Source of the DNA: Myxococcota bacterium
GTDB taxonomy: Bacteria > Myxococcota_A > Polyangia > Polyangiales > Sandaracinaceae
NCBI GenBank assembly: GCA_036149055.1
Contig: JAYZQJ010000191.1
Location: 11,716-43,715 of the forward strand
Length of the DNA: 32,000 nucleotides
Reading direction: 5' to 3'
The notes under the pieces were generated by a model. The model did not search any database. It saw nothing but the letters and a program-made list of their open reading frames with translations, and was not told the DNA's origin. The position numbers were made by a program, and so were the translations under genes. Below are positions 3,394 through 21,390 of this stretch, piece by piece. Every line of letters starts with the position of its first letter. Position 1 is the first letter of the stretch.

Positions 3394-3706
3394 GGCTCTC
3401 CTCACATCGACGGAGGGGTGAAGAACTTGACCTCCCGCCATCGGGACGTCCCCGCTCCCTCACATCGAGCCTTCGCCCCGCTGGGGCGCCACACAAGTCC
3501 ACTGGATCGGACGCGTCCGCGGCGTCGGGCTTTCCCTGGCACGTCGAGATCGTTTTCCATCGGGGTGCGTAGCCTTTTTCGCACTTTGAACTCTCACGTC
3601 GTCGCGTTGCGCGGAGCCCCCGTCTTCGGCTAGCGTCGCCGCCCAGTTCCGGGAGGGGTGAGGTGCGCGCACGCGCAGGCCCGCCCTTCTCCGAGGAGGC
3701 TTTCAC
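3394..3706. promoter_or_regulatory. Divergent intergenic/promoter region between the REC-EAL gene and the sterol operon
   Basis: This is the only long (313 bp) non-coding gap in the window. It contains the least GC-rich patch (3550-3600, cgttttccat...cctttttcgcactttgaac). A possible -35/-10 pair is TTGCGC (3607-3612)-N18-TAGCGT (3631-3636). Two direct repeats are present (see findings). SD GAGGAGG (3693-3699) sits 7 nt before GTG 3707. Confidence 0.4.
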
Positions 3707-6220
<2,514 letters not shown>

Positions 6221-6223
6221 GCC

Positions 6224-7345
6224 ATGGCCGAGACGTACGACGCCGAGGTGGCGATCATCGGCGCCGGCCCGGCCGGCACCGCCGCGGCCGCGCACCTCGC
6301 GAGCCTCGGGATCGACGACGTGGTCCTCGTCGACCGCCACGACTTCCCGCGCGACAAGACCTGCGGCAGCGGCATCTCCCCCAAGGGGATCAAGGTGCTC
6401 AAGGAGCTCGGCATCTGGGAGGAGGTCGAGCCCCACGCCTACTGGATCCGCGGCATCCGCATCGTCACGCCGGGCGGCCGCGACAGCTGGCAGTCGGCCG
6501 GCGACGTCGCCGAGGCCGTGGTCTGCCACCGCCGCACCCTCGATCACATCCTCTGGAAGAAGGCCGTCTCGGGCGGCGTGCGCTTCCTGCCCAACTTCGA
6601 CGCCGCCGAGGCGATCGAGGAGGGCGGGCGCATGGTCGGCTTCAAGGCCCGCGACGGCCGCGAGGTCCGCGCCCGCTACACCCTGATCGCCGGCGGCAGC
6701 CACTGCCGCGTCGGCCTGCCGGAGCTCCGGCCGCGCCGCACCATCCAGGCGATCATGGGCTGGTGGGACGACGCGGACTTCAAGCCGCACCACGTCGAGA
6801 TGATCTTCGACCGGATGATCGAGCCCTACTACGGCTGGCTCTTCCCGGAGTCGGAGACGCGGGTGAACATCGGCATCACCTACGAGGATCCGCCCGGCGA
6901 GAAGAAGCACGCGCGGAAGCTCTTCCAGCAGTTCCTCGACAAGTACTACGGCGAGCGCCTCGCCAACGCGACGCAGGTCGGCGGCTGGAAGGGCCACCCG
7001 GTGGTCTGGAGCTACAAGATCGACAGCCTCACCGCGCCCGGCCGCGTCGCGATCGGGGAGTCCGGGCTGATGACCCACCCGGCGACCGCCGAGGGCATCT
7101 ACCAGGGCATGCGCTCCGGCATGCTCGGCGCCGAGGCCGTTCACTCGATCCTCCGCCGCGGCGTGGCCGAGCAGGAGGCGGGCGCGATCTACGAGCGCGA
7201 GTGCAAGAAGGCGTTCCAGCTCTCCTTCTGGGGCGGCGGCGTCTTCCGCAAGATGGTGCGCACCGACGCGCTCGACTGGGCGGTCGCGATCGGCGAGCAG
7301 CCGATGGTGCAGTCGGTCACCGCGAAGCTGATGGCGGCCATGTGA
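6224..7345 (+). CDS. FAD-dependent oxidoreductase, geranylgeranyl reductase family
   Basis: The 373-aa product has VAIIGAGPAGTAAA (GxGxxG), RDKTCGSGISP (the GGR-type Cys motif RxKxCGG), YGWLFP, and IGESGLMTHPATAEGI (GDAAG-like). It starts 3 nt after the previous stop. Its stop TGA (7343-7345) shares 1 nt with the next ATG. Confidence 0.85.
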   Translation: MAETYDAEVAIIGAGPAGTAAAAHLASLGIDDVVLVDRHDFPRDKTCGSGISPKGIKVLKELGIWEEVEPHAYWIRGIRIVTPGGRDSWQSAGDVAEAVVCHRRTLDHILWKKAVSGGVRFLPNFDAAEAIEEGGRMVGFKARDGREVRARYTLIAGGSHCRVGLPELRPRRTIQAIMGWWDDADFKPHHVEMIFDRMIEPYYGWLFPESETRVNIGITYEDPPGEKKHARKLFQQFLDKYYGERLANATQVGGWKGHPVVWSYKIDSLTAPGRVAIGESGLMTHPATAEGIYQGMRSGMLGAEAVHSILRRGVAEQEAGAIYERECKKAFQLSFWGGGVFRKMVRTDALDWAVAIGEQPMVQSVTAKLMAAM

Positions 7346-10300
7346 TGACGCCGCGGTACGACGTCGGGATCGTCGGCGCGTCGGTCGCCGGGTGCACCAC
7401 CGCGCTGGCGTGCGCGAAGGCGGGGGCGCGCGTGCTCCTGCTCGAGGCCGACCCGAACGAGGCGGCCGCGCAGCACGTCGGAGCGTGGCTCCACCCGGAC
7501 GCGATGGACGCGCTCGAGGGCCTCGGCGTCGACCTCGTGCCCCCCGTGGGCTACCCGACCGGCAAGGGCTACGTGCTCTTCCCGGAGGACGGCACCGAGG
7601 CCGTGGTCCTGCCGTACTCGGTGGGCCGCTTCGGCTTCTCGCTCCCGCAGGGCCTCCTGGTCGAGACGCTGCGGCAGCACTGCGACGCCGACGAGGCGGT
7701 GACCCTCCGCTCGCCGGTCCGCGCGAGCCGCGTCGACGCGGGTACGCTCACCTGGCAGGAGCGCGGCCGCCCGCGCAGCGCCCGGGTCGAGCACGTCGTC
7801 TTCGCCGCCGGCGCGGACGTGCAGCCGATCAAGCGCGGCGCCGGCTACGTCTTCGGCGCGATCGAGCGGCCGCCGACGCACCGCATCGCCAGCCTCGATC
7901 TGGTGGGCGCGACGCTGCCCTTCGAGGGCTTCCGACACGTCTTCGTCGGCGGCTGCGGCGTCGCGATCGCGCACCGCGTCGGCCCGGCCACCGTGCGCCT
8001 GGCGCTCGACGTGCCGCTCGGCTTCCGCGTGCCCCGCGAGGGCGGCGTGCAGCTGCTCGAGGCCTACGCGCCGTCGCTGCCGGAGGAGCTCGCCCTGCCC
8101 TTCGCCGAGGCGCTGCGCCGCGGGGCGCCGTCCTGGTCGCACGGCCGCATCCAGCCGCGCGGCAACATGATCCGCGGGGGCATCGCGCGGGTCGGCGACG
8201 CCGCCGGCAGCCTGCACCCGCTCACCGCGGCCGGCCCGAGCCTCGCGATCGCCGACGGCGTCGCCTTCGCCGAGTCCCGCTCGCCGGCCTCGTTCGCGCG
8301 CAAGCGCCGCCGCGACACCCGCCTCCCCGAGGCGATCGCGATCGGGCTCGCCGAGGTGCTGACCGACGAGGCGCCGGAGAGCGTCGCCATCCGCCGCGCG
8401 ATGTACAACATGTGGCGCGACGATCCGGGCGAGCGGCTCCGCACGATGAGCTACATCGCCGGCGAGAACGAGGGGCTGCTGCGCTTCGGCGGCTCGTGTC
8501 TCCGGGTCATGCTCTCGAGCGCGGCCCGGGTGGCGAAGAGCGGCGCCCGCGGCGAGCTGCGCCACGCGCACCGGACCGGCTCGGCGCTGCTCGAGCGCAT
8601 CGGCTGGATGGTCGGCGGCGCGCTCGGCTGGAGCGATCTCCTGCCCGACGCCTTCGCGGAGAAGCTCGAGGCGCGCGGCACCACGCGCTACCTCGGCGCG
8701 CTGCACCACACCGGCGAGGCCGAGGTCGTCGGGCTGCCCGCCCGGAGCGGCGGCGCGTCGTCGATCCAGACCGCGCTCGCGCGCGGCGCCCAGGCGCTGG
8801 TGAACGAGCAGGCCGAGGACGGCTCCTTCGAGGGGGAGGTCGTCTGGTGCCCGATGCTCGCCGCGCAGTACGTGCTCGCCTCGCACGTGATGGACCGGCC
8901 GATCGATCCCGAGCGTCGGCGGCTGCTCCTGCGTCACTTCGAGGACACGTTGCTGCCCGGCGGCGCGTGGGGCCTGCACGAGAAGAGCGAGCCCTACCTC
9001 TTCGTCACCACGCTCGTGTACGTCGCGGCCCGGCTCCTCGGGGTCGACAAGGACGACGCGCTCATCCGCGAGGCGAAGGCGTTCATCCGTCAGGAGGGCG
9101 GCGCGGTCGGCATCCCGAGCTGGGGCAAGCTCTGGCTCGCGCTCGTCGATCTCTACGCCTGGGAGGGCGTCAACCCGGTGGTGCCCGAGCTCTGGGCGAC
9201 GCCGCGCTGGCTGCCGATGCACCCGAGCCGCTACTACTGCCACACCCGGCTCATCTACATGGGCATGGCCGCGCTCTACGGCGGGCGCGTGCGGCGCGAA
9301 GCGAACGCGACCATCCGCTGCGTGCGCGACGAGATCTTCCTCCAGCCGTACGGCGAGATCGACTTCGACGCCGCGCGCGAGACCCTCCGCGAGGGGGACG
9401 TGCACGACGCGCCGGGGCCGCTCCTGAAGCTGAGCTACCGGCTCCTCACCCGCTTCGAGCAGGCCAAGTCCGACGGCCTCCGGCAGAGGCTCCTCGGCGA
9501 GCTGCGCGACAAGATCCGCTACGAGCTCCGCTCGACGCACTACACCTGCATCTCGCCGGTCAGCGGCATGCTCGGCCTCCTCGCGCTCCACGCGAACGAC
9601 CCGTCGGATCCCGACCTCGTGAAGGGGCTCGAGGGCTTCGAGGGCTGGATCTGGGAGGACGAGCAGGAGGGCGCGCGCATCGCCGGCGCCCGGAGCGCGA
9701 CCTGGGACACCGCGTTCGCCGCCCAGGCGCTCGCGGCGGCCGCGGGTCACGTGGACGTCAGCGCGCCCCTCGAGCGCGCCGACGCCTTCCTCGCCAGCCA
9801 GCAGATCCGGCGCGGCACCGGCCTCGAGGGGCAGCACGACCGGCTCGACCCGACCGGCGGCTACTGCTTCGCCGGCGTCTGGCACGGCTGGCCGGTCAGC
9901 GACTGCACCGCCGAGGCGATGCTCGCGCGGCTCCACAACCCGGCCGCGAAGCCGAGCGCCCGCGCGATGGAGCAGGCGGCCGAGTTCGTGCTGCGCTGCC
10001 AGAACGCCGACGGCGGCTTCGGGAGCTACGAGGCGCGGCGGCACGCGCGGCTCTCGATCGACTGGCTCAACCCGAGCGAGATGTTCGGCGCGTGCATGAC
10101 CGAGCGCTCCTACGTCGAGTGCACCGCGTCGTGCGTGCAGGGCCTCGCCGCCTTCCGCGAGCGCTACCCGGACCGGCTCCGCGGGCGCGTCGACGCGGCG
10201 ATCGAGGCCGGCGTCGCCCGCCTCCGCGCCGAGCAGCGCGCCGACGGCTCCTTCGAGGGCATGTGGGGCGTCAACTTCATCTACGGGACGCTCTTCGGGG

Positions 10301-10740
10301 TCCGCGGGCTGCTGGCCGGCGGCGTGCCCTGCACCGACCCGCAGATCCGCCGCGCCTGCGCGTGGCTGCTCGAGCGCCAGCGCCCCGACGGCGGCTGGGG
10401 CGAGCACTTCGCGAGCGTGCTCGAGGGCCGCTACGTGGAGCACGAGGAGGCGCAGGTCGTGCAGACCGCGTGGGCGCTGACCTGCCTGCTCGAGGCCGAG
10501 GAGCCGGACTTCGCGGCGCTCGAGCGCGCGGCCCGGCTGCTCGCCCGGACCCAGCGGTCCGACGGAACGTGGCCGAAGCAGGATCCCGAGGGGATCTTCT
10601 TCCACACCGCGCTCCTCGAGTACCGCCTCTACCGCGCATACTTCCCGCCCTGGGCGCTCGGGCTCTTCGCGAGCCGCGCCGAGGCCAGGGCCGCCTGGAC
10701 CGAAGGGGGCCGCGCCGAGCGCCGCCCCGCCATCGTCTGA
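7345..10740 (+). CDS. Fusion protein: squalene monooxygenase (epoxidase)-like flavoprotein domain (aa 1-430) + oxidosqualene cyclase (aa 472-1131)
   Basis: This is the real part of track ORF 3658-10740, starting at ATG 7345 (GTG 7342 is an alternative). N-terminal domain motifs: YDVGIVGASVAGC, GAWLHPDA, RVGDAAGSLHPLTAAGPS (compare SQLE GE.LQPGG and GDA.NMRHPLTGGGMT). C-terminal domain motifs: the catalytic GWPVSDCTAEAM (Asp at 9901-9903), WDTAFAAQAL, and QW repeats (EQRADGSFEGMWGVNFIYGT, ERQRPDGGWGEHF, RTQRSDGTWPKQ). The C-terminus YRAYFPPWALG is close to eukaryotic lanosterol synthase. Confidence 0.93.
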   Translation: MTPRYDVGIVGASVAGCTTALACAKAGARVLLLEADPNEAAAQHVGAWLHPDAMDALEGLGVDLVPPVGYPTGKGYVLFPEDGTEAVVLPYSVGRFGFSLPQGLLVETLRQHCDADEAVTLRSPVRASRVDAGTLTWQERGRPRSARVEHVVFAAGADVQPIKRGAGYVFGAIERPPTHRIASLDLVGATLPFEGFRHVFVGGCGVAIAHRVGPATVRLALDVPLGFRVPREGGVQLLEAYAPSLPEELALPFAEALRRGAPSWSHGRIQPRGNMIRGGIARVGDAAGSLHPLTAAGPSLAIADGVAFAESRSPASFARKRRRDTRLPEAIAIGLAEVLTDEAPESVAIRRAMYNMWRDDPGERLRTMSYIAGENEGLLRFGGSCLRVMLSSAARVAKSGARGELRHAHRTGSALLERIGWMVGGALGWSDLLPDAFAEKLEARGTTRYLGALHHTGEAEVVGLPARSGGASSIQTALARGAQALVNEQAEDGSFEGEVVWCPMLAAQYVLASHVMDRPIDPERRRLLLRHFEDTLLPGGAWGLHEKSEPYLFVTTLVYVAARLLGVDKDDALIREAKAFIRQEGGAVGIPSWGKLWLALVDLYAWEGVNPVVPELWATPRWLPMHPSRYYCHTRLIYMGMAALYGGRVRREANATIRCVRDEIFLQPYGEIDFDAARETLREGDVHDAPGPLLKLSYRLLTRFEQAKSDGLRQRLLGELRDKIRYELRSTHYTCISPVSGMLGLLALHANDPSDPDLVKGLEGFEGWIWEDEQEGARIAGARSATWDTAFAAQALAAAAGHVDVSAPLERADAFLASQQIRRGTGLEGQHDRLDPTGGYCFAGVWHGWPVSDCTAEAMLARLHNPAAKPSARAMEQAAEFVLRCQNADGGFGSYEARRHARLSIDWLNPSEMFGACMTERSYVECTASCVQGLAAFRERYPDRLRGRVDAAIEAGVARLRAEQRADGSFEGMWGVNFIYGTLFGVRGLLAGGVPCTDPQIRRACAWLLERQRPDGGWGEHFASVLEGRYVEHEEAQVVQTAWALTCLLEAEEPDFAALERAARLLARTQRSDGTWPKQDPEGIFFHTALLEYRLYRAYFPPWALGLFASRAEARAAWTEGGRAERRPAIV

Positions 10741-10773
10741 GAATTCTGTCGTCGAGCCGTACCGATGCAGTCC

Positions 10774-10779
10774 AAGGAG
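10774..10779 (+). promoter_or_regulatory. Shine-Dalgarno (AAGGAG) for the SQMO-repeat-SQS gene
   Basis: AAGGAG lies 5 nt upstream of ATG 10785, in the 44-nt gap after the OSC stop codon (10738-10740). Confidence 0.6.
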
Positions 10780-10784
10780 CAGTC

Positions 10785-13700
10785 ATGAACCGCAGCAGCT
10801 ACGACGTCGTCGTCGTCGGAGCCGGGCCCGCCGGGTGCGGCGCCGCGCTCGCTCACGCCCGCCGGGGCGCCTCCGTGCTCGTGGTCGAGGCCGACCCTCG
10901 CGCCGCGAAGCGCTTCGCCGGCGAGTGGCTCCACCCCACCGGCGTCGCCGTGCTCGACGCGCTCCGGGTCGGCCGCCTCGAGCAGGCGAGGGCCCGCGCG
11001 GGCTACGGCTTCGTCATCTTCCCCGACGACGGCAGCGAGCCGATCGAGATGGCCTACACCGAGGGCGTCGCGCTGAGCGCCGAGCACCACGCGATCGTCG
11101 AGGCGATGCGCGACGCGCTCCGGGCCGAGGACCGGGTGGAGCTGCTCATCGGAGGCCGCGCGGTGCGGGTCGCCGACGGCGTCATCCGGATCGAGGACAA
11201 GAAGAGCGGCCGCGCGACCGACGTGCGCGCCGGACGGATCATCGGCGCCGACGGCCGCAAGTCGACGGTGCGCGAGAGCCTCGGCGTCCCGACCCAGAAG
11301 AGCGCGCCGCTGAGCTACATGGCCTCGGTCGAGCTGCGCGACGTGGAGCTGCCCTTCGAGGGCTTCGGTCACCTCGTCCTCGGCGGACCCGGCCCGGCGC
11401 TCTTCTACCGCATCGGCGACGGGCTCATCCGCGGCTGCCTCGACGTGCCGATCGCGCTCGGCCCGAACGCGCGCTCGCTCGAGGCGCTCTGGGACGGCTT
11501 CGGCCCGGTGATGCCGGAGTCGATGCGCCCCGCGCTCCGCGCCGCCCTCGAGCGCGGCCCGAGCGGCTGGGCGATCAACCAGTTCCGCCCCCGCGCGCTC
11601 TTCGGCGCCGGCGACGTGCGGCTGGTCGGCGACGCGGTCGGCCACGTGCACCCGATGACGGCCACCGGCATGACGCTCGGCCTGCTCGACGCCAAGGCCC
11701 TCGCCGAGAGCGACAGCCTGGAGTCCTACGCCAAGGCGCGCCGGAGCTACGTGCCGGAGCTGCTGTCGAACGCGCTCTACCACTGCTTCCGCCGTGACGA
11801 CCCGAGCGCGACCGCGATCCGCCGCGCGATGTTCGAGACGCTCCGCAAGGAGCCCCGCGAGCGCCGCCGCACGATGGACATCCTCGCCGGCACCGATCAG
11901 AGCCGGCGCAGCTTCGGCTCGGCCTTCCTCCGCATCGCCGCCCGCGCGGTCGGCGGCTCCCTCGAGAGCGAGCGCCCGCTGTCGCGCCTCATGAGCTTCG
12001 GCGAGTGGATGCAGTGGCCCGCCGCGCTGGTGGTGCCGAGCGGCCTCGACGCGAGCGTGCGCGCCCAGAGCAGCACGACGCACCCGATCCCGCAGCTGGC
12101 CAAGCTCACGCCGACCGCGGCCCCCGTGGCCCCGCCCGAGACGCCCGGCGGGAAGGCGCCGGCGCTCGACGTGCCGCTCACCCCGGCCCTCGAGCGCGGC
12201 ACCGCGGCGCTCCTCCGGGAGCTCGAGCGGCTCGCGATGCAGTTCGGCGAGGTGCCCGACGCGACCCTGGCCGGCCCGGCGCTCTCCTGCATCCGCGCGA
12301 TCACCGCGACCCGGATGCGCCTCGGCATGGCCGCGCGCATGACGCTCGGGCGTCGCCGCCTCGCCACCGAGGGCTTCCCCCGCCTCCTCGACGCCGAGCC
12401 GCACGCGCGGCACCTGGCGGAGCTCTGCCTGGTGCTCCTCGACGGCGCGCCGTGGGACGAGCAGCCGATCGCGAGCCTCGACGAGGGCGTGCGCGCGCTG
12501 CTCGACTGCCAGACCGAGAGCGGCGGCTTCGCGCGCTCCCGGGGCGTCGCCTCCTCGCCCGGCGCGGCCGGAGAGCTCGAGCTGACCGCGCTCGCGTGTC
12601 GGGCGCTCGAGGTGGTCGCGCGCAAGGGCAAGAGCGACGCCGACCTCGGCCGCGCGCTCGAGCGGGCCGCCGACTGGGTCGTCTCGCTGCAGGGCGACGA
12701 CGGCGACTTCGGCGGCGACGTCTCGCGCACCGCCTGGGCGATCGAGGCCCTCATCGCGGCCGGCGTGCACCCCGGCGATCCGGCGGCGCGTCGCGCGGTC
12801 CGCTGGCTCTCGGTGGCGCTCGACCCGAGCGGCGATCCGGTCGAGGCGGCGCGCGCCGTCCGGGCGCTCCTCGCCGCCGGCGTCTCCTCCAACGAGGCGA
12901 TCGTCTCCGCGGCCCGCGGCCTCGCGTCGCTCGAGGAGACCGACTGGCGCGTGGCGCGCGAGGTGGTCGAGGCGCTCGCCGCCTGTGAGGTCCGCCGGGC
13001 CGAGCGGCCGCAGAAGCGCGCCCGTCGCCGCAAGCGCGGCAGCGACAAGTCGCCGATCGGGCCCGAGCTGAAGGCGGACTGGAAGTTCTGCCGCCAGGCG
13101 CTCGGCGAGGTCTCGCGCACCTTCGCGCGGCCGATCGAGATGCTCCCGCCGAAGCTCGAGGTCGCCGTCTCGCTCGGCTACCTCCTCTGCCGCATCGCCG
13201 ACACCGTCGAGGACCACGTCGCGGTGCCCTTCGAGGTGAAGGACGATCTGTTCGCGAAGCTCTGCGCGGTGCTCGAGCACGGCGCGGATCCGGCGCCCTT
13301 CGCCGAGGCGTTCACCCACATCGAGGGCGACGACGCGGAGCTGTCCCTGGCCCGCGAGCTGCCGCGCGTGATGCGGGTCTACGACGCGCAGGACGAGGCG
13401 ACGAAGAAGGCGTGCACGCGCTGGGTCACCGAGATGGCCCGCGGCATGAGCCTCTACACGCACCGCAAGCCCGAGGCCGACGGCGTCGCGGCGCTGCACA
13501 CGATCCCGGACCTCGAGCGCTACTGCTACTACGTGGCGGGCACGGTCGGGCACCTCCTGACCGACCTCTTCGTCGACGCGATCGGCGAGGACCCCGAGGG
13601 CGCGCTCGCGATCGCGATGCGGGACCACGCGGAGGGCTTCGCGACCGGCCTGCAGCTCACGAACATCCTGAAGGACGTGACCGACGACCTCGCGCGCGGG

Positions 13701-14105
13701 GTCTCGTTCATCCCGCGCACCGAGTGCGCGCGGCAGGGCTTCTCGGTCGCCGATCTCGCCGACCCGAAGGTGCGCGACCGGGCCCACGCCGCCGTCTCGC
13801 CGGTCTTCGACATCGCCAAGGAGCGGCTCGACGCGGCGCTCGAGTACTCGCTGCTCATCCCGTCCGAGCACCGCCAGATCCGGCTCTTCTGCCTGCTGCC
13901 GCTCTGGATGGCCGGCCGCACCCTGGCGCTCGGCCGCGGCAACGACGCGATGTTCGAGCCCGACCTGCCGGTCAAGATCACCCGGAGCGAGGTCGAGTCG
14001 CTGATCGCCGAGTGCATGACGCTCGCCGAGGACGACGACGCGCTGCGCGCTCGCTACGCGCGCCTGTTCGAGCCGGCCCAGGGCCAGCGGCGGGAGATGC
14101 GATGA
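10785..14105 (+). CDS. Three-domain fusion: squalene monooxygenase (aa 1-420) + terpene-cyclase/prenyltransferase-type alpha-helical repeat domain (aa 465-735) + squalene synthase (farnesyl-diphosphate farnesyltransferase, aa 760-1106)
   Basis: This is the real part of track ORF 7392-14105, starting at ATG 10785 with an SD. SQMO motifs: VVVVGAGPAGC, GEWLHPTG, GADGRKSTVRE, LVGDAVGHVHPMTATGMT. Middle-domain repeats: LLDCQTESGGF and WVVSLQGDDGDFGG. SQS motifs: VSRTFARPI, YLLCRIADTVED (first Asp-rich), YCYYVAGTVGHLL, GLQLTNILKDVTDDLARGVSFIP (second Asp-rich). Confidence 0.92.
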   Translation: MNRSSYDVVVVGAGPAGCGAALAHARRGASVLVVEADPRAAKRFAGEWLHPTGVAVLDALRVGRLEQARARAGYGFVIFPDDGSEPIEMAYTEGVALSAEHHAIVEAMRDALRAEDRVELLIGGRAVRVADGVIRIEDKKSGRATDVRAGRIIGADGRKSTVRESLGVPTQKSAPLSYMASVELRDVELPFEGFGHLVLGGPGPALFYRIGDGLIRGCLDVPIALGPNARSLEALWDGFGPVMPESMRPALRAALERGPSGWAINQFRPRALFGAGDVRLVGDAVGHVHPMTATGMTLGLLDAKALAESDSLESYAKARRSYVPELLSNALYHCFRRDDPSATAIRRAMFETLRKEPRERRRTMDILAGTDQSRRSFGSAFLRIAARAVGGSLESERPLSRLMSFGEWMQWPAALVVPSGLDASVRAQSSTTHPIPQLAKLTPTAAPVAPPETPGGKAPALDVPLTPALERGTAALLRELERLAMQFGEVPDATLAGPALSCIRAITATRMRLGMAARMTLGRRRLATEGFPRLLDAEPHARHLAELCLVLLDGAPWDEQPIASLDEGVRALLDCQTESGGFARSRGVASSPGAAGELELTALACRALEVVARKGKSDADLGRALERAADWVVSLQGDDGDFGGDVSRTAWAIEALIAAGVHPGDPAARRAVRWLSVALDPSGDPVEAARAVRALLAAGVSSNEAIVSAARGLASLEETDWRVAREVVEALAACEVRRAERPQKRARRRKRGSDKSPIGPELKADWKFCRQALGEVSRTFARPIEMLPPKLEVAVSLGYLLCRIADTVEDHVAVPFEVKDDLFAKLCAVLEHGADPAPFAEAFTHIEGDDAELSLARELPRVMRVYDAQDEATKKACTRWVTEMARGMSLYTHRKPEADGVAALHTIPDLERYCYYVAGTVGHLLTDLFVDAIGEDPEGALAIAMRDHAEGFATGLQLTNILKDVTDDLARGVSFIPRTECARQGFSVADLADPKVRDRAHAAVSPVFDIAKERLDAALEYSLLIPSEHRQIRLFCLLPLWMAGRTLALGRGNDAMFEPDLPVKITRSEVESLIAECMTLAEDDDALRARYARLFEPAQGQRREMR

Positions 14106-14809
14106 TGGGCTTCGAGCTTCCGATGATGGACAACCTCTGGTTCCACGTCGCGATCGGCATCACGCTCTTCGTCGACGCGGTCCTCCTGGTGTTCCTCAGC
14201 TGGGCCTACCGCTCGCCGCGCTTCGCGAAGTACCACATTCGCAAGCCGATGGAGATGCGGGTCAGCAAGTCGAATTACCGCTGGACGGTGGGCGTCATCG
14301 GCCTGCTGTCGAGCAGCTCGACGGTGGTGCTCATCTACGGGCTCGCCCCGCTGACCATCAGCGAGACGACGACCACGCCCTGGTGGCTCATCGCGCTGCA
14401 GTTCTTCGGCGTGCTCTTCGTCTACGACTTCGCCTACTACTTCATGCATCGGACGATGCATCACCGGAAGCTCATGCCGCTGGTGCACGAGATCCATCAC
14501 CGCGTCCGCGTGCCGAGCGCGCTCGAGAGCCTCTACCTCTCGCCGGTCGAGATGCTCGCGGGCCTGCTGCTGCTGATGGCGGTGACGTGGGCGCTCGGCC
14601 CGGTGCACTGGATCGCCTTCGTGGCGGTCTTCTTCCTCTACTCGACGCTGCACATCGTCATCCACTCGGGGATGACCTTCCCGCACCCGGTCTTCCGCGT
14701 GATGAACCACCTCACGATGAAGCACCACAAGCACCACCTGAACAAGCACGGTCACAACTTCGCGTCCGTGACCCCGCTGCCGGACATCGTGTTCGGCACC
14801 TCTGTCTGA
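14102..14809 (+). CDS. Fatty acid hydroxylase superfamily membrane di-iron enzyme (sterol desaturase / C-4 methyl oxidase family, ERG3/ERG25-like)
   Basis: The 235-aa product has about 4 TM segments. His boxes are HRTMHH, HEIHHR and HHKHHLNKHGH. Its ATG overlaps the previous stop (ATGA at 14102-14105). Confidence 0.88.
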   Translation: MMGFELPMMDNLWFHVAIGITLFVDAVLLVFLSWAYRSPRFAKYHIRKPMEMRVSKSNYRWTVGVIGLLSSSSTVVLIYGLAPLTISETTTTPWWLIALQFFGVLFVYDFAYYFMHRTMHHRKLMPLVHEIHHRVRVPSALESLYLSPVEMLAGLLLLMAVTWALGPVHWIAFVAVFFLYSTLHIVIHSGMTFPHPVFRVMNHLTMKHHKHHLNKHGHNFASVTPLPDIVFGTSV

Positions 14810-14816
14810 GGCAGTC

Positions 14817-16487
14817 ATGTTCCTTCGCAGACCCGAAGTCCCGGAAGGGCTCAAGCCCGCGCCGGAGCTGTCCGGCGGGCTCCCGCTCGTCGGTCACACC
14901 GTCGAGTTCGTGCGCGACACGATCGGCATGCTCGAGCGCGCCCACCACGAGCTCGGCGAGGTCGCCGCGGTGCGCGTCGCCGGCCGCCGCATGGTCGCCC
15001 TCTTCGGCCCCGAGGCCCACGAGGCGGTCTTCCGCGCGAAGGACCAGGTCCTCGACCCGCGCGAGGCCTACAAGATCATGACCCCCGTCTTCGGCGAGGG
15101 CATGGTCTACGACGCCTCGCCCGAGAAGATGAACGAGCAGTTCAAGATGCTGCTCCCGGCGCTCAAGGACCGCCGCATGCGCACCTACGGGGAGACCATC
15201 CTCGACGAGGTCGAGCGCAGCGTCGCGGACTGGGGGGACGAGGGCGAGATCGACATCGTCGACTACTGCCGCGTCCTGACGAACTTCACCTCCTCGCGCT
15301 GCCTCATCGGCGAGGAGTTCCGCGAGCGCATGACCGACGAGTTCGCGCGCATCTACCACGACCTCGAGCGCGGCGTGACGCCCCTCGCCTACATCGACGC
15401 GAACCTCCCGATCCCGAGCTTCAAGAAGCGGGACGCGGCCCGGGTCCGGCTCGTGAAGCTGATCGGCGCGATCATCGACGAGCGCGCCCGGACCGGCCGG
15501 ACCGGTGAGGACTTCCTCCAGACCCTGATGGAGGCCCGCTACCAGGACGGCGCGGCGCTCACCCACGACGAGATCACCGGGATGCTGCTCGCGGCGATGT
15601 TCGCCGGGCACCACACCAGCTCGGTCACCACCGCGTGGGCCCTCATCGAGCTCTGCAAGAACCCCGCGTACATGCGGCGCGTGGTCGCGGAGCTCGACGA
15701 GACCTACGGCGAGAGCGGCCAGACCGACTACCAGTCGCTCCGCAACATCCCGGTCACCGAGCACGCGGTGAAGGAGACCCTGCGGCTCTACCCGCCGCTC
15801 TTCCTGCTCATCCGGGTGGTGCAGAAGGACTGGACCTTCAAGGGGCACCACCTGCCGAAGGGCACCTGGATCCTCGTGTCACCGACCGTCTCGCAGCGCG
15901 ACCGCGAGGTCTTCACCCACCCTTACACCTTCGACCCCGACCGCTTCGCCGAGCCGCGCAACGAGGGCAAGAAGGACTGGGCGTTCATCGCCTTCGGCGG
16001 CGGCCGCCACAAGTGCCTGGGCAACGCGTTCGCGCTCCTCCAGGTCAAGGCGATCCTCGGCACGCTCCTGCGGCGCTACGAGTTCGAGCTGGTCGACCCG
16101 AAGGTGAAGCCGGACTTCCACGGCCTCGTCATCGGCCCCTCCGAGCCCTGCCGGCTGCGCTACCGCCGCCGCGAGGAGAAGGTCGCCGCCCGCCCGGCCC
16201 CGAAGGTCGAGGAGGCGCCGAAGCCGGCGCCGAAGAAGAAGGAGGAGCGAGTCCAGCTCCGGATCGCGCTCGACCTCGATCTCTGCCAGGGCCACGCGGT
16301 CTGCGTGAACGAGGCGCCGGGCGTCTTCTACGTCTCGGACGAGACCGGCAAGGTCGCCCTCCACACCGATCGCCCCGACCCGAGCCAGAACGACGCCGTG
16401 CGCGCCGCGGCCGACTACTGCCCGCAGCGCGTCATCCAGGTCCACGAAGAAGACGAAGCGCCCCTCACCTGCCCCGTGGCGCACTGA
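14817..16487 (+). CDS. cyp51: Sterol 14alpha-demethylase (CYP51) fused to a C-terminal 3Fe-4S-type ferredoxin domain
   Basis: CYP51 signatures present: YKIMTPVFGEGMVYDA (B' helix), MFAGHHTSS (helix I), ETLRLYPP, and heme loop FGGGRHKCLGNAF (Cys codon 16014-16016). It is very similar by eye to M. tuberculosis CYP51. A Lys/Pro/Ala linker (16164-16250) precedes the ferredoxin domain (16251-16484), which carries CQGHAVC...CP (CxxHxxC...CP). Confidence 0.95.
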   Translation: MFLRRPEVPEGLKPAPELSGGLPLVGHTVEFVRDTIGMLERAHHELGEVAAVRVAGRRMVALFGPEAHEAVFRAKDQVLDPREAYKIMTPVFGEGMVYDASPEKMNEQFKMLLPALKDRRMRTYGETILDEVERSVADWGDEGEIDIVDYCRVLTNFTSSRCLIGEEFRERMTDEFARIYHDLERGVTPLAYIDANLPIPSFKKRDAARVRLVKLIGAIIDERARTGRTGEDFLQTLMEARYQDGAALTHDEITGMLLAAMFAGHHTSSVTTAWALIELCKNPAYMRRVVAELDETYGESGQTDYQSLRNIPVTEHAVKETLRLYPPLFLLIRVVQKDWTFKGHHLPKGTWILVSPTVSQRDREVFTHPYTFDPDRFAEPRNEGKKDWAFIAFGGGRHKCLGNAFALLQVKAILGTLLRRYEFELVDPKVKPDFHGLVIGPSEPCRLRYRRREEKVAARPAPKVEEAPKPAPKKKEERVQLRIALDLDLCQGHAVCVNEAPGVFYVSDETGKVALHTDRPDPSQNDAVRAAADYCPQRVIQVHEEDEAPLTCPVAH

Positions 16488-16501: not shown

Positions 16502-18076
16502 ATGCAGAACGTCGCCATCGAGCTCGAGAGCACCCCCGAGGTCATCGACTGCCGCGAGCCGGCCACCCACGCGCCCCTCGGCAAGGTGCCGGTGGACGGG
16601 CCGGACGTGGTCCGCGCCAAGGTCGCGCGGGCGCGCGTCGCGCAGAAGAGCTGGGGGGAGAGCACCTTCTCGGAGCGCCGCCGCCTCCTCAAGACCATCC
16701 TCGCCCACGTGCTCGACCACGCGGACGAGCTCTGCGAGGTCGTGGTCCGCGACGCCGGCAAGACCCGCGAGAACGCGGTGATGGGCGAGATCTGGCCGGT
16801 CTGCGAGAAGCTCCGCTGGACGATCGCGAACGGCGAGAAGCACCTCCGCCCCGAGCGCATGTCGAGCGGCCTGTTCCTGCACAAGAAGGCCACCGTCCTC
16901 TACCAGCCGCTCGGCGTCATCGGCGTGATCTGCCCGTGGAACTACCCGCTGCAGAACGTGCTCGGGCCGACCATCCCGGCGCTCTTCGCGGGCAACGCGG
17001 TGGTGGTGAAGGTCTCCGAGCAGGTCGCGTGGTCGTCGGCGCGCATGCAGCGCATCTTCGACGAGGCGTTCGACGCGCTCGGCTACCCGAAGGACACCGT
17101 GCAGATCGTCAACGGCTACGGCGAGACCGGCGCCGCGCTGGTCCGCTCGGGCGTCGACAAGGTGATCTTCACCGGCTCGGTCCCGAACGGCCGGAGGATC
17201 ATCGAGGGCAGCGTCGAGAACATCACGCCCGTCATCCTCGAGCTCGGCGGCAAGGACGCGTTCATCGTCTGCGAGGACGCCCACATGGAGCAGGCGGTGC
17301 ACGCCGCGCTCACCGGCGTGTTCATCGCGGCCGGCCAGAACTGCATGGCCGCCGAGCGCGTGCTCGTGCACGCGAAGGTCTACGACGACTTCGTCGGCCG
17401 CCTCGTGAGCGAGGTGAAGAAGCTCCGCGTGGGCGACGCGCCGCAGGGCGCGGTCGACGTGGGCGCGCTCGTCTCGCCGCAGCAGGTCGAGATCGTCGAG
17501 CGGCTCGTGAACGACGCGGTCGAGAGCGGCGCGCGGGTCCTCGTCGGCGGCAAGCGCGGCGATCGCCCGGGCCAGTTCTTCGAGCCCACCGTGCTCGTCG
17601 ACGTCACCCCGGACATGGCGATCATGAACGAGGAGGTCTTCGGCCCGGTGATGTGCGTGCACCGCTACGAGACCGACGACGAGGCGATCGAGATCGCCAA
17701 CGGCACCCGCTTCGGCCTCGGCTCCACCGTGATGAGCCGCTCGGGCACGCGCGCCCGCCGCCTCGCCGAGCGCCTCCGCGTCGGCTCCTGCACCATCAAC
17801 GACTTCGGCTTCACCTACATGGCGCAGGACCTGCCCTTCGGCGGCGTGGACGCCAGCGGCTTCGGTCGGCTCAACGGCCGCGAGGGCCTGCGAGGCTGCA
17901 CCAACCAGAAGGCCATCCTCGAGGATCGGCTGCCGCTGCACATGCCGGCCAAGCTCTACCCGGTGAAGCCCGAGGTCTACCCGCTCGTGCGCGGGGTGCT
18001 CCGGACGCTCTACCAGCCGACCCTGACCGGCCGCGCCAAGGCGGTGGTCGAGCTCGCCAAGAACCTCCGCCGATGA
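16502..18076 (+). CDS. Aldehyde dehydrogenase family protein
   Basis: This is the real part of track ORF 15635-18076, starting at ATG 16502. ALDH motifs present: CPWNYP, FTGS, ELGGKD (catalytic Glu), GQNCMAAER (catalytic Cys), EEVFGPV. It has a C-terminal extension of about 50 aa. Confidence 0.9.
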   Translation: MQNVAIELESTPEVIDCREPATHAPLGKVPVDGPDVVRAKVARARVAQKSWGESTFSERRRLLKTILAHVLDHADELCEVVVRDAGKTRENAVMGEIWPVCEKLRWTIANGEKHLRPERMSSGLFLHKKATVLYQPLGVIGVICPWNYPLQNVLGPTIPALFAGNAVVVKVSEQVAWSSARMQRIFDEAFDALGYPKDTVQIVNGYGETGAALVRSGVDKVIFTGSVPNGRRIIEGSVENITPVILELGGKDAFIVCEDAHMEQAVHAALTGVFIAAGQNCMAAERVLVHAKVYDDFVGRLVSEVKKLRVGDAPQGAVDVGALVSPQQVEIVERLVNDAVESGARVLVGGKRGDRPGQFFEPTVLVDVTPDMAIMNEEVFGPVMCVHRYETDDEAIEIANGTRFGLGSTVMSRSGTRARRLAERLRVGSCTINDFGFTYMAQDLPFGGVDASGFGRLNGREGLRGCTNQKAILEDRLPLHMPAKLYPVKPEVYPLVRGVLRTLYQPTLTGRAKAVVELAKNLRR

Positions 18077-19677
18077 TCGAGACGTTCGACTACGTCGTGG
18101 TCGGCGGGGGCTCCGCCGGCTGCATCGTCGCGGCCGAGCTGAGCGAGGATCCGCGCGTCCGGGTGCTGCTCCTCGAGCGCGGGGACGACGCGCAGGAGCA
18201 CCCCGAGACGCTCCGCGCCGACGGCTACAAGGACGCGTTCGCGAACGACGCGCTCGTGCTCGAGCGCTTCAGCGTGCACGCCGATCGCTGGGGTGACCGC
18301 CGGCTCTTCATGGGCTCGGGGCACGGCCTCGGCGGCAGCGGCAACATTAACGGCATGGTCTACACCCGCGGCGCAAAGGTCGACTACGACGCCTTCCCCG
18401 AGGGCTGGCGCTGGGCCGACGTGGTGCCCGACTTCGAGCGCATCGAGGCGCAGCTCCGCCCGCGCCCCCGCGCGGCGACGGCCTTCACCGAGGTCTGCCT
18501 CGACGCGGCCGAGGAGGCGGGCTTCGCGCGCTCGAAGGACCTGAACGACGGCGACCTCGGCGGGGTGCTCGGCTACGAGCACATGAACTACGAGGGTGAC
18601 GACCGGCGCAGCAGCTACGTCGCCTTCCTCCTGCCCGCGCTCGACCGCGGCAACCTCGTGGTCCGCACCAACGCGAAGGTCGAGCGCCTCACCGTCGACG
18701 AGCGGGGCGTCACCGGCGTGCGCTACGCCTGGGACGGCGGCGACCACGAGGCGCGGGCGGTCCGCGAGGTGGCGATGTGCGCCGGCGCCCTCGAGACGCC
18801 GCGCCTGCTGATGCTCTCGGGCATCGGGCCGAGCGGCGCGCTCCGGCACGTGGGCCTGCCCGCGGTGCACGAGGTGCCCGGGGTGGGCGAGAACCTCCAC
18901 GACCACCCGAACGTGAGCCTCTTCTTCCGCGGTCAGCGCGAGGTCGACTGCAACTACCCGCAGCTCTACGGCTTCCACCGCGCGAACGAGGCGACCGACC
19001 TGCCCGAGGGCGCGAGCGACACCTGCTACGTCTTCTACCCGGCCCGCAGCTCGCTCAAGGAAGCGATGATGCGCATGCTGCCGACGCTGGTGCTGCCGGA
19101 GCCGCTCTACGATCTGCCCGCGATGCCCAAGCTGGTGCGCGGCGGCGTGCGCCTCGCCTTCGGGCCGCGCGCGATGCGAGAGGCGGTCAAGCGCGTCTAC
19201 GGCATCGTCGTCATCCTCGGCAAGCCCAAGAGCCGCGGCCGGCTCCGGCTCACCGCCTCGAGCCCGAGCGCCCCGGCGGCGATCGACCCGGGCTACTTCG
19301 CCGACCCCGAGGACATGGAGACGATGATCCGCGGCGTCGAGCGCGCCCGCCGCATCGCCCGCGCGCAGCCGCTCCGGTCGTGGGGCAACACGGAGCTCTT
19401 CCCCGGCCTGCTCGGGCGCTCGCGCGACGCGATCGAGGGCTGGATCCGGCAGAACGTGATGACCACGTATCACTACGCCGGCACCTGCGCGATGGGCGAC
19501 AACGGCGCGAGCGTGTGCGATCCGCGCCTCCGGGTGCGGGGCGTGCGCGGCCTCCGGATCGCCGACGCCTCGGCCATCCCGTTCACGCCGGTCTCGGCCC
19601 TCAACGCCCCCTCCATGCTGGTCGGCCACCGCGCCGCCCGCTTCATGCGCGAAGAGTCCCCAAGCGTGGACGCCTGA
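18073..19677 (+). CDS. GMC-family FAD oxidoreductase (choline dehydrogenase / alcohol oxidase-like)
   Basis: This is the real part of track ORF 16936-19677. Its ATG overlaps the ALDH stop (ATGA at 18073-18076). Motifs present: DYVVVGGGSAGCIVAAELSED...LLLERG, GGSGNINGMVYTRG, LMLSGIGP, YHYAGTCAMG (active-site His), IADASAIP. Confidence 0.92.
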   Translation: MIETFDYVVVGGGSAGCIVAAELSEDPRVRVLLLERGDDAQEHPETLRADGYKDAFANDALVLERFSVHADRWGDRRLFMGSGHGLGGSGNINGMVYTRGAKVDYDAFPEGWRWADVVPDFERIEAQLRPRPRAATAFTEVCLDAAEEAGFARSKDLNDGDLGGVLGYEHMNYEGDDRRSSYVAFLLPALDRGNLVVRTNAKVERLTVDERGVTGVRYAWDGGDHEARAVREVAMCAGALETPRLLMLSGIGPSGALRHVGLPAVHEVPGVGENLHDHPNVSLFFRGQREVDCNYPQLYGFHRANEATDLPEGASDTCYVFYPARSSLKEAMMRMLPTLVLPEPLYDLPAMPKLVRGGVRLAFGPRAMREAVKRVYGIVVILGKPKSRGRLRLTASSPSAPAAIDPGYFADPEDMETMIRGVERARRIARAQPLRSWGNTELFPGLLGRSRDAIEGWIRQNVMTTYHYAGTCAMGDNGASVCDPRLRVRGVRGLRIADASAIPFTPVSALNAPSMLVGHRAARFMREESPSVDA

Positions 19678-19695
19678 AACCGCACCATCGGGCCT

Positions 19696-21387
19696 ATGCT
19701 CCCAGTACGGGGAGAGGCCGTGGGGGTAGAGGACGGAGTCGCGACATCCTGGAGAGAGCCCGCCCTTCGGCGCGCGATCGACTGGGTGCTCGCGCTCGGC
19801 TCGCTCGTCGCGCTGATGACGGCGGGCCTCGTCTGGGCTCAGGACCCGGCGGGGCTGCTCGCGCCTCCGTACCTCGCGATGATGCTCGCGTTCGGTGGCG
19901 TGCTGCTCGCGCGTCTCGGGCGCCTCTCGTTCTCCGCTCGGGCCCGGGTCTTCTCCGCGTCCATCGTGCTGATGGGCGGGCTGGCGCTGCTCAACTTCGG
20001 CCTCGCGCCGGGGCCCTTCGTGGCCCTGGCCCTGGCCTCGGTCACCGCGGGCGCCTTCCTCGGGAGGCTCGCGCTCGGGGTGACGCTCGCCGGCGGGACC
20101 CTCTCGGTGATCGCGGCGGGCTGGCTCGTCACCCGCGGGCACGTCGCGCCGGTCAGCGCCTCGTTCGTCGCGGGCGACATGCAGCACTGGGTCCGGGCCG
20201 CGGTCGAGTACGCGCTCTTCGGCGGCAGCGTCGCCGCGGTCCTCATGCAGCTCGTCGTGCAGCTCGAGCGGCGCGAGGTCGCCAAGGCGCGCGCGCAGCG
20301 GCTCGAGGCTCTCGGGCGATTGGCCGGCGGGGTCGCCCACGACTTCAACAACGCGCTCCAGGTGATCTTCGTCTGGCGCGAGCTGCTCGCCGAGCACGAC
20401 GACGACGAGGTGCGGGAGGCGATGGAGGAGATCCACGCCTCGGCCGAGCAGGCGAGCCGCCTCACCGCGCAGCTCCTCGCCTTCGGCCGTCGCGACGTGT
20501 GGACGCCCCGCGCGCTGACGCTCGCCGAGGAGGTCTCGCGCTGGAGCGGCTCGGTGCGGCGGCTGCTCCCCGAGGACGTCGCGCTGGAGGTCCGGACCAC
20601 GGCCTCCCCGACCGTGATGTGCGACCCCGGGCAGCTCGAGCAGATCCTGCTCAACCTCGTGGTCAACGCCCGTGACGCGATGCGGGGCGGCGGACGCGTC
20701 CTCATCGCGCTCGACGAGGTGGACGCCGACGAGGTCCCGGGGCGCGCGCTGCCGGCGGCGCGGATCGCGCGGCTGAGGGTCGAAGACGACGGCCCCGGCA
20801 TGCCCGAGGACGTGCGTCAGCGGGTGTTCGAGCCGTTCTTCACCACCAAGGACGAGCTGGGCACCGGGCTCGGCCTGTCGATCGTCTACGCGGCGGTGCA
20901 GCGCGCGGGCGGCGCGGTGAGCGTCAGCTCCACGCCGGGCGAGGGGACGACCTTCTCGGTGTTCCTCCCGTGCGTCGCCGCGGAGGTGAGCGAGGAGGCG
21001 GAGAGGGCCTCGCGCCCGGCGCCGCACACGCACGAGGGCGTCGTCCTGCTCGCCGAGGACGAGGCCAACATTCGCAGGAGCCTCGCCGGCTGTCTGCGCG
21101 ACGCCGGCTACACGGTGCTCGAGGCGGAGGACGGCGACCGCGCGATGGCCCAGGTGGAGTCGCACGACGGGCCGATCGACGTGCTCTGCACCGACGGCGT
21201 GATGCCCGGCGTGTCCACCCACAGCGTCATCCACCGCTACCTGGAGCTGCACCCGGAGGGGCGCGTCCTGATCTGCTCCGGACACGTCGACGAGGAGCTG
21301 GTCCGGCGGGATCTCGACGGGGATCACCTCGAGCTGCTCCCCAAGCCCTTCGCGCCCAGCGAGCTCTTGAGGCGGCTGCGCGGTTGA
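19696..21387 (+). CDS. Hybrid sensor histidine kinase (multi-TM N-terminus, HisKA, HATPase_c, C-terminal REC)
   Basis: The N-terminal 190 aa or so are hydrophobic (5-6 TM) with no sizeable periplasmic loop. Kinase motifs: H-box GGVAHDFNNALQ, N-box LLNLVVNARDAM, G1 EDDGPGM, G2 GTGLGLS. REC motifs: VLLAEDE, LCTDGVMPG, PKPF. The first codons have low GC3, so GTG 19720 (after GGGGAG) is an alternative start. Confidence 0.88.
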   Translation: MLPVRGEAVGVEDGVATSWREPALRRAIDWVLALGSLVALMTAGLVWAQDPAGLLAPPYLAMMLAFGGVLLARLGRLSFSARARVFSASIVLMGGLALLNFGLAPGPFVALALASVTAGAFLGRLALGVTLAGGTLSVIAAGWLVTRGHVAPVSASFVAGDMQHWVRAAVEYALFGGSVAAVLMQLVVQLERREVAKARAQRLEALGRLAGGVAHDFNNALQVIFVWRELLAEHDDDEVREAMEEIHASAEQASRLTAQLLAFGRRDVWTPRALTLAEEVSRWSGSVRRLLPEDVALEVRTTASPTVMCDPGQLEQILLNLVVNARDAMRGGGRVLIALDEVDADEVPGRALPAARIARLRVEDDGPGMPEDVRQRVFEPFFTTKDELGTGLGLSIVYAAVQRAGGAVSVSSTPGEGTTFSVFLPCVAAEVSEEAERASRPAPHTHEGVVLLAEDEANIRRSLAGCLRDAGYTVLEAEDGDRAMAQVESHDGPIDVLCTDGVMPGVSTHSVIHRYLELHPEGRVLICSGHVDEELVRRDLDGDHLELLPKPFAPSELLRRLRG

Positions 21388-21390
21388 TCG

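Follow-up and report, generated by a model that had tools for sequence, protein, structure and literature searches.

A myxobacterial sterol-cluster gene that fuses squalene epoxidase and squalene synthase domains around a probable relic of a triterpene cyclase

Here we analysed 32,000 nucleotides of DNA (the window) from a Myxococcota bacterium of the Sandaracinaceae (assembly GCA_036149055.1, contig JAYZQJ010000191.1, positions 11,716 to 43,715 of the forward strand), and in it one gene, at 10785..14105 (+), that encodes a squalene epoxidase (SE) domain, a middle module (MID) and a squalene synthase (SQS) domain in a single chain. The fusion gene is genuine, and its product is likely to be a conserved bifunctional sterol-pathway enzyme of Myxococcota, in which, judging from sequence comparison and structure prediction, SE and SQS would both be active and MID would be a non-enzymatic relic serving as a scaffold. 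The gene is one open reading frame (ORF), whose 1106 codons translate without interruption up to its stop codon. Its parts, with amino acid (aa) positions and with confidence in the AlphaFold model given as the predicted local distance difference test (pLDDT), are as follows.

10774..10779 (+): Shine-Dalgarno sequence AAGGAG, read off the sequence, 5 nt ahead of the ATG at 10785.
10785..12065 (+): predicted squalene epoxidase (FAD monooxygenase) domain, aa 1–427, including C-terminal helices at aa 398–427 (EWMQWPAA...); from Pfam, phmmer, Foldseek and motifs.
12066..12179 (+): Pro/Ala-rich linker 1, aa 428–465; no regular secondary structure, pLDDT 70–90.
12180..13004 (+): MID, aa 466–740, a predicted single alpha/alpha toroid of about 13 helices with two or three QW-type repeats (CQTESGGF, LQGDDGDFG, RRAVRWL...); from AlphaFold, profiles, Foldseek and hhalign.
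13005..13061 (+): basic flexible linker 2, aa 741–759 (RPQKRARRRKRGSDKSPIG); pLDDT below 50 at aa 748–751.
13062..14105 (+): predicted one-step (eukaryote-type) squalene synthase domain, aa 760–1106, and the stop codon; from Pfam, NCBIfam, PDB and motifs.

An earlier reading of the window, made from its letters alone (the sequence-only reading), had described this gene as an uninterrupted frame of 1106 codons with a GC content at third codon positions (GC3) above 90% across all junctions, joining a FAD squalene monooxygenase to a single-enzyme squalene synthase of the eukaryotic type. The frame is indeed intact. In a sliding analysis, the codon-position GC signal held a single frame from 10681 to 14041, and GC3 was 0.98 over the whole gene, with 0.90 in the lowest 30-codon window; by part it reached 0.98 in SE, 1.00 in linker 1, 0.975 in MID, 0.95 in linker 2 and 0.99 in SQS. 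All of the motifs that had been quoted are present in the translation (GAGPAG, GEWLHPTG, GADGRKS, GDAVGHVHPMTATGMT, DTVED, YCYYVAGTVG, NILKDVTDD, CQTESGGF and LQGDDGDFGG), and both enzyme assignments held up in the profile and structure searches described below. A full-length AlphaFold2 model, with 108 homologues as input, had a mean pLDDT of 93.2 and a predicted template modelling score (pTM) of 0.73; most of SE and most of MID lay above pLDDT 90. Motif and column conservation within the fusion family was read from an alignment of 108 homologues.

The N-terminal domain is, by family, motifs and predicted fold, a squalene epoxidase. Two Pfam models matched aa 6–399 above their cut-offs, FAD_binding_3 (E 5.8e-20; 72.2 bits against 22) and SE (E 9.3e-19; 68.0 bits against 20.1). 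The best solved relative was human SQLE (6C6N), both by sequence (phmmer E 1.1e-22) and by fold (Foldseek E 1.5e-18, TM 0.79–0.81). The Foldseek match covered 446 of 450 target residues (446 columns) and therefore includes the SQLE-like C-terminal helices. The motifs GAGPAG (GxGxxG), GEWLHP, GYGF, GADG and GDAVGHVHP were invariant or nearly so in the homologues and in all fusion-type sequences. Tyr74 of GYGF, conserved in every fusion-type sequence, aligned with the Tyr of the human SQLE NGY motif, which we take to be Tyr195.

The C-terminal domain carries both Asp-rich motifs and is assigned by sequence to the one-step squalene synthases. Pfam SQS_PSY (PF00494) matched aa 775–1067 (E 1.8e-42; 146.3 bits against a cut-off of 26). 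Among NCBIfam models the top match was the squalene synthase TIGR01559 (E 1.4e-34), with HpnD (1.2e-15) and HpnC (3.7e-12) far weaker. The best solved relatives were the squalene synthases of the PDB (E 6.4e-24 to 3.8e-17), and CrtM followed at 1.7e-10. Invariant among the homologues were SRTF, DTVED, YCYYVAGTVG, QxxNxxKDxxxD and KIxR, including residues D806, E809, D810, D964, D968 and Y913–G922, which we presume to be equivalent to the catalytic positions of human squalene synthase. The SQS-specific segment K1064-I1065-x-R1067 was likewise invariant and lends indirect support to an NADPH-dependent reduction to squalene. Hydropathy gave no C-terminal transmembrane helix on this domain.

Between the two enzymes, the sequence-only reading had placed a module of cyclase or prenyltransferase toroid type at 12177–12989 (aa 465–735), a span that agrees with the helical domain of the AlphaFold model (aa 466–740). 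In the full-length model MID comprised 12–13 helices, and it was also confidently predicted when modelled alone (pLDDT 87.5, pTM 0.83). The Pfam models SQHop_cyclase_N and SQHop_cyclase_C stayed below threshold on it (19.3 and 18.8 bits against 26.1 and 26.2, E about 1e-3). A MID profile built from 24 family members, compared with PDB sequences, ranked squalene-hopene cyclase (SHC) first (1.3e-26) and human lanosterol synthase second (2.8e-22), followed by other class II terpene cyclases. Foldseek with the MID model against the PDB placed SHC, human oxidosqualene cyclase (OSC) and the entry 8pak at the top (TM 0.52–0.58), followed by drimenyl diphosphate synthases and complement TED domains, all of them alpha/alpha toroids; structural similarity to cyclases is thus present. 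The cyclase half of the earlier description therefore stands (SHC 1e-26; hhalign probability 99.4%, below). Its prenyltransferase half does not: a relationship to protein prenyltransferase beta subunits (PF00432) was rejected with a best match to the RabGGTase beta subunit (geranylgeranyl transferase type-2) at E 0.12 against 1e-26 for SHC, and a Pfam search of the fusion protein returned no prenyltransferase (PF00432) match.

Compared by hhalign with the family of the OSC encoded upstream, MID aligned with a probability of 99.4–99.5% (E about 1e-22). The alignment was colinear, ran from the catalytic SDCTAE of OSC to its extreme C terminus, and covered the C-terminal 200 residues of MID and the C-terminal third of OSC. 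In it, ARHLAEL of MID fell on SDCTAEA of OSC, with H543 at the position of the catalytic Asp. This column held D in 53, H in 23 and A in 15 of the homologues. The MID columns aligned with SHC D376 and D377 were variable or non-acidic, column 599 was variable, and the only invariant MID residues were R518 and A607. S-D-[L/F]-A-[E/S]-[L/F] is retained in about half of the family, compared with S-D-C-T-A-E in OSC and R-H-L-A-E-L (aa 542–547, 12408–12425) in the protein studied here; as a relic, S-D-[L/F]-A suggests that MID descends from an OSC and not from an SHC. Descent from a whole OSC or from its N-terminal half was considered and rejected, as the alignment was significant from SDCTAE to the C terminus only. 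The first MID helix matched the N-terminal helix of OSC at E 0.009 and a probability of 4.5%, which is not significant, so that an assignment of MID to cyclase domain 1 is a hint only.

MID passes one test for a class II cyclase, an alpha/alpha toroid with QW repeats and sequence homology, and fails those for an active SHC or OSC, namely the two-barrel (beta-gamma) architecture, the acid motif (DxDD or VxDCTAE) and the Pfam threshold. Because it has a single barrel and no conserved catalytic Asp, we read MID as a vestigial cyclase barrel and not an enzyme, probably one barrel of a cyclase of OSC ancestry whose second barrel was lost. Of the roles that had been offered for the module, sequence and model thus favour the vestigial cyclase half: one barrel, homologous to the C-terminal part of OSC, with H543 in place of a catalytic Asp that the family does not conserve. 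Mean identity to the homologues was 47% for MID, 60–62% for the catalytic domains and 27–35% for the linkers; MID lies between catalytic domains and linkers and is therefore under constraint, which indicates continued purifying selection. Its best-conserved part was the N-terminal 70 residues (LL.ELE...G.VPD....MRAI....MAARMTLGRRRLA..G.PRLL), of which aa 476–534 (AARMTLGRRRLA) are found in this family alone. Among 1.84 billion representative proteins, matches to the whole of MID, and to this N-terminal part, were confined to the SE–MID–SQS architecture or its fragments, and other proteins matched the QW repeats only.

The linkers are less conserved. Linker 1 had a mean identity of 35% across the family compared with 60% for SE. 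At the SQS junction, RRAERPQKRARRRKRGSDK (aa 737–755) is strongly basic in this protein, as the sequence-only reading had it, with 11 K/R against 2 D/E in 20 residues (aa 737–756). The description does not extend to the family, where linker 2 spans about 20–90 aa with a conserved RP at its start and a variable, often but not always basic sequence. Its aa 748–751 form the sole internal stretch of the model with pLDDT below 50. No transmembrane helix was found anywhere in the fusion protein (maximum 19-residue hydropathy 1.32). Because there is no transmembrane segment, we infer that contact with the membrane is probably at its surface and made by the SQLE-like C-terminal helices and perhaps the basic linker.

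The domain order recurs in other genomes. A homologue search returned 439 proteins at E ≤ 1e-10, and the architecture was read on the best 120, almost all of which were 1100–1260 aa long and had the Pfam domains of SE as well as SQS; the fusion architecture is shared by more than 100 full-length homologues. Named members come from Sandaracinaceae, Sandaracinus amylolyticus, Polyangiales, Myxococcaceae and Cystobacter fuscus; for S. amylolyticus and C. fuscus, the proteins are encoded in assembled genomes. The closest match was a metagenome protein (92% identity), and metagenome-assembled genomes (MAGs) of Sandaracinaceae followed at 73–76%; these matches assign the window to an uncultured member of that family. 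Database names of the homologues are 'FAD-dependent oxidoreductase' and 'squalene/phytoene synthase family protein'. Loci were located by a genome scan with an alignment of the junctions, and in all 25 with enough flanking sequence an OSC gene lay beside or near the fusion gene. In the Sandaracinaceae and Polyangiales loci this OSC bears an N-terminal epoxidase-like domain, whereas in C. fuscus it is stand-alone and directly downstream. Sterol production has been demonstrated by experiment in S. amylolyticus and C. fuscus, both of which have orthologues of the fusion (PMC4919349, PMC12004948). Not all members of the phylum have the fusion: HpnCDE and a separate SQMO were reported from a Nannocystis genome (PMC10152446).

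These data allow us to propose how the protein may work. The SQS domain, of the class I terpenoid-synthase fold, would condense two molecules of farnesyl diphosphate (FPP) and reduce presqualene diphosphate with NADPH to squalene, which the SE domain would convert with O2 and FAD to 2,3-oxidosqualene for cyclisation by the OSC encoded next door. MID may be a rigid scaffold that fixes the geometry of the two catalytic domains at the membrane surface, and possibly a dock for OSC as well, in which case docking would give a three-enzyme assembly. The gain from fusion would be a 1:1 stoichiometry and the co-localization of enzymes that pass on a very hydrophobic intermediate.

Several observations weigh against this proposal. 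The SQS domain scored 119.8 bits with TIGR01559 and did not reach the equivalog cut-off of 286.75; because of this score we regard it as a divergent member whose orthology is not established by that criterion. Enzymology of any member of the fusion family was not found in the searchable literature, and the inter-domain geometry is that of a prediction with a pTM of 0.73. Residual chemistry in some MID members that keep S-D-[L/F]-A is conceivable from their sequences. Last, in C. fuscus NCWS (L026, 8504–12261) SE and MID–SQS occupy two overlapping ORFs in different frames, and database entries exist with MID–SQS only (P0122, P0124) or SE–MID only (P0208), so the fusion may be dispensable. Such split or partial copies could be real fissions, gene fragments or frameshift errors; in C. 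fuscus strain Cbf 10 (L024, 8342–12268) the fusion is one ORF.

The gene directly upstream bears on the docking role suggested for MID.

7345..10740 (+): 1131-aa fusion protein in which an epoxidase-like domain with degenerate motifs precedes a complete oxidosqualene cyclase (SE-like–OSC); Pfam SQHop_cyclase_N/_C about 1e-51 to 1e-54, SE 2e-5.

Its epoxidase-like domain and the SE domain of the fusion gene are paralogues (33% identity, E 1e-58). In the window this domain has GASVAG for GxGxxG and GAWLHP for GEWLHP. At the position of Tyr195, each of the aligned OSC-fused orthologues has K, R, S or Q (K in the window). The Asp of GADG is also missing from them (FAAGAD in the window), except in one further example, P0199. 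The domain is thus probably a pseudo-epoxidase, and the OSC joined to it retains SDCTAE. By these motifs, the cluster probably pairs a live epoxidase and a dead cyclase barrel with a dead epoxidase and a live cyclase. An origin of MID within the SE-like–OSC fusion is not supported: Cystobacter has SE–MID–SQS together with a stand-alone OSC, and MID is therefore at least as widespread as the SE-like–OSC fusion.

The complementary live and dead pairs in adjacent genes (SE and MID on one side, the epoxidase-like domain and an OSC with SDCTAE on the other) raise a refinement of the scaffold proposal, in which reciprocal dead domains would assemble a metabolon: MID would dock the live OSC, in Sandaracinaceae the OSC-fused epoxidase-like domain would dock the live SE, and SQS, SE and OSC would form one membrane complex leading from FPP to protosterol. 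An OSC gene adjacent or close at every locus examined fits such a complex, as does the family-specific segment at aa 476–534, the most conserved part of MID, which could be a specific interface. The same segment is equally explicable as an intramolecular interface, however. In Cystobacter, moreover, MID occurs although the OSC stands alone and lacks an epoxidase-like domain, and pairing of epoxidase with epoxidase is therefore not the original reason for MID. We hold this refinement to be possible but doubtful. Somewhat less probable again is its fullest form, in which the matched half-dead fusions would have arisen by duplication and reciprocal domain decay, the pseudo-domains would be dedicated docking modules of an SQS–SE–OSC complex at the membrane surface that carries FPP to the first sterol with no release of squalene or oxidosqualene, and the fused state would be a rare genomic character.

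A further alternative is that MID is active, either as a non-canonical single-domain class II cyclase or as a domain with some other catalytic or ligand-binding function, such as the sensing of squalene or sterols, which would make the protein trifunctional or allosterically regulated. Single-barrel class II cyclases do exist. The closest structural match of MID by TM score (0.58/0.55), 8pak, is a 347-residue monodomain protein of C. fuscus deposited as 'squalene-hopene cyclase'; 8pak and 8paj are both monodomain proteins of about 350 aa, and other cases are MstE and AsDMS, a one-barrel drimenyl diphosphate/drimenol synthase (PMC12232559). Within the family, conservation of D/E reaches 81% at column 597, and 49% of members have Asp at column 543. 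Against this, no acid is invariant at the catalytic positions, where the protein in the window has H543 and L600; invariance is limited to R518 and A607; the Pfam cyclase models remain below threshold; and a complete OSC is already present in the cluster. With no conserved acid and a single barrel, we judge an active MID unlikely, well behind the docking models, and retain the view that MID is a non-enzymatic relic between two presumably active enzymes.

Last, the idea that a lost stop codon or a frameshift in sequencing or assembly merged two or three adjacent genes is effectively refuted. Long spurious ORFs do arise in high-GC genomes (the window has 66–78% GC throughout and many long ORFs in its list), and one C. 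fuscus assembly (L026) carries the gene split over two frames, but the coding-frame signal is continuous through the gene, neither linker breaks the frame or falls below a GC3 of 0.95, the whole chain folds at pLDDT 93 in AlphaFold, and the same single ORF recurs in more than 100 independent, colinear homologues from MAGs and complete genomes.

The two fusion genes lie in a run of genes of sterol type, the other members of which are listed here.

3662-6220 (+): HMG-CoA reductase fused to a NAD-dependent epimerase/3beta-hydroxysteroid-dehydrogenase-like domain (HMGR–HSD); Pfam.
6221-7345 (+): geranylgeranyl-reductase (GGR) homologue; 73% identity to its positional counterpart in the S. amylolyticus cluster.
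14102-14809 (+): fatty-acid-hydroxylase superfamily (FA_hydroxylase; sterol oxidase/desaturase-like) gene, the ATG of which overlaps the stop of the SE–MID–SQS gene (ATGA, 14102-14105).
14817-16487 (+): CYP51-type P450 fused to a C-terminal 4Fe-4S-type ferredoxin (Pfam Fer4_13/Fer4_15); Pfam.
16502-18076 (+): aldehyde dehydrogenase (ALDH); Pfam.
18073-19677 (+): GMC oxidoreductase; Pfam.
19678-22833 (+): hybrid histidine kinase/response-regulator gene, starting directly after the GMC stop, then an S41 peptidase gene.

The ATGA overlap suggests translational coupling between the SE–MID–SQS gene and the FA_hydroxylase gene. At the other end, the ATG of SE-like–OSC overlaps the GGR stop at 7343–7345, and stop/start overlaps of this kind point to a tightly coupled operon. 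The HMGR–HSD fusion is one ORF in S. amylolyticus and in most of the Sandaracinaceae and Polyangiales loci that cover it. In S. amylolyticus, the GGR homologue has been demonstrated to act as the C-24 sterol reductase, Bsr (PMC12004948), and its counterpart here suggests a cholesterol-type end product with a saturated side chain. A CYP51–ferredoxin fusion is known from Methylococcus CYP51fx (PMC7947880). The two MAG loci closest to the window (L003 and L005) have the ALDH and GMC genes in synteny, whereas the S. amylolyticus cluster lacks both; these genes may belong to an alternative route of sterol tailoring.

Both enzymes and the S. amylolyticus cluster were already known, and the fusion is widespread in Myxococcota and lies within that published sterol cluster (PMC12004948). 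We found no description of the SE–MID–SQS architecture in the searchable open-access literature, nor any mention there of an SE–SQS fusion in myxobacteria, a cyclase-derived MID or a degenerate epoxidase on OSC; the text and supplement of PMC12004948 contain neither 'fused' nor 'fusion'. In the debate on the origin of eukaryotic sterol synthesis, myxobacterial sterol genes have a central place (PMC8237579). Two of the key ones, for SQS and squalene epoxidase, are in much of the phylum a single gene, in which what we read as a decayed cyclase domain separates the two enzymes. Since domains joined in this way have a common history, alignments and trees of SE and SQS are affected, and fusion or fission becomes a discrete character for transfer scenarios; if the proposal is true, the rare fused state could serve in testing whether eukaryotic SE and SQS are of myxobacterial origin, as has been proposed. 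For the evolution of pseudo-domains, MID would be a catalytic domain repurposed as a structural module, with a mirror-image partner in the adjoining gene. For engineering, the protein may offer a transmembrane-free module from FPP to oxidosqualene for bacterial sterols and triterpenoids, where soluble and balanced expression of SQS and SE in bacteria is a known bottleneck.

Finally, each part of the protein can be set beside a known system. The sterol cluster of S. amylolyticus (J Bacteriol 2025, PMC12004948, Fig. 2a) is orthologous at 57–73% identity and shares HMGR–HSD, the GGR/Bsr C-24 reductase, SE-like–OSC, SE–MID–SQS and CYP51–ferredoxin, whereas the window has no Rieske, ERG24 or ERG2 gene in its cluster and carries the FA_hydroxylase, ALDH and GMC genes instead. 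Human SQLE (6C6N; Pfam PF08491) resembles the SE domain in fold (TM 0.8), including the C-terminal helices, and in the FAD motifs GxGxxG, GE-x-L-x-P, GADG and GD and the active-site Tyr; unlike SQLE, the SE domain has no N-terminal regulatory/membrane domain, is only 22% identical in sequence and forms the N-terminal part of a 1106-aa fusion. One-step squalene synthases (human FDFT1 3VJ8, 7WGH; TIGR01559) share with the SQS domain both Asp-rich motifs (DTVED, DVTDD), the Tyr of YCxYVAG, SRxF and VKIxR, and by best database matches the domain is closer to them than to HpnC, HpnD, CrtM or CrtB; it differs from the eukaryotic enzymes in having no C-terminal transmembrane anchor and a toroid domain fused at its N terminus. 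The triterpene cyclases SHC and OSC (1GSZ/2SQC, 1W6K), like the upstream OSC, have the QW-type repeats and alpha/alpha toroid of MID, which is colinear with the C-terminal part of OSC but has one barrel rather than two, about 275 aa rather than about 650, and no conserved catalytic Asp (DxDD, SDCTAE).

The single-barrel class II cyclases (MstE 6SBB; 8pak/8paj, the former the best TM-score match) are, like MID, toroids of cyclase ancestry, in their case stand-alone; one-barrel cyclases also occur in fusions, as in the Aquimarina drimenol synthase with its HAD phosphatase (PMC12232559). These enzymes are active with a catalytic acid, whereas MID has no conserved acid and lies between two other enzymes. 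Another natural fusion that involves SQS is the diatom IDI-SQS. Plant terpene synthases of the beta-alpha and alpha-beta-gamma types carry vestigial cyclase domains, and the order of MID and SQS, in which an apparently non-catalytic beta-type barrel precedes a class I alpha-fold synthase, is that of the plant beta-alpha enzymes. The myxobacterial arrangement differs from theirs in that its origin was apparently independent, its alpha domain is a head-to-head synthase, and a FAD monooxygenase has been added at the N terminus.

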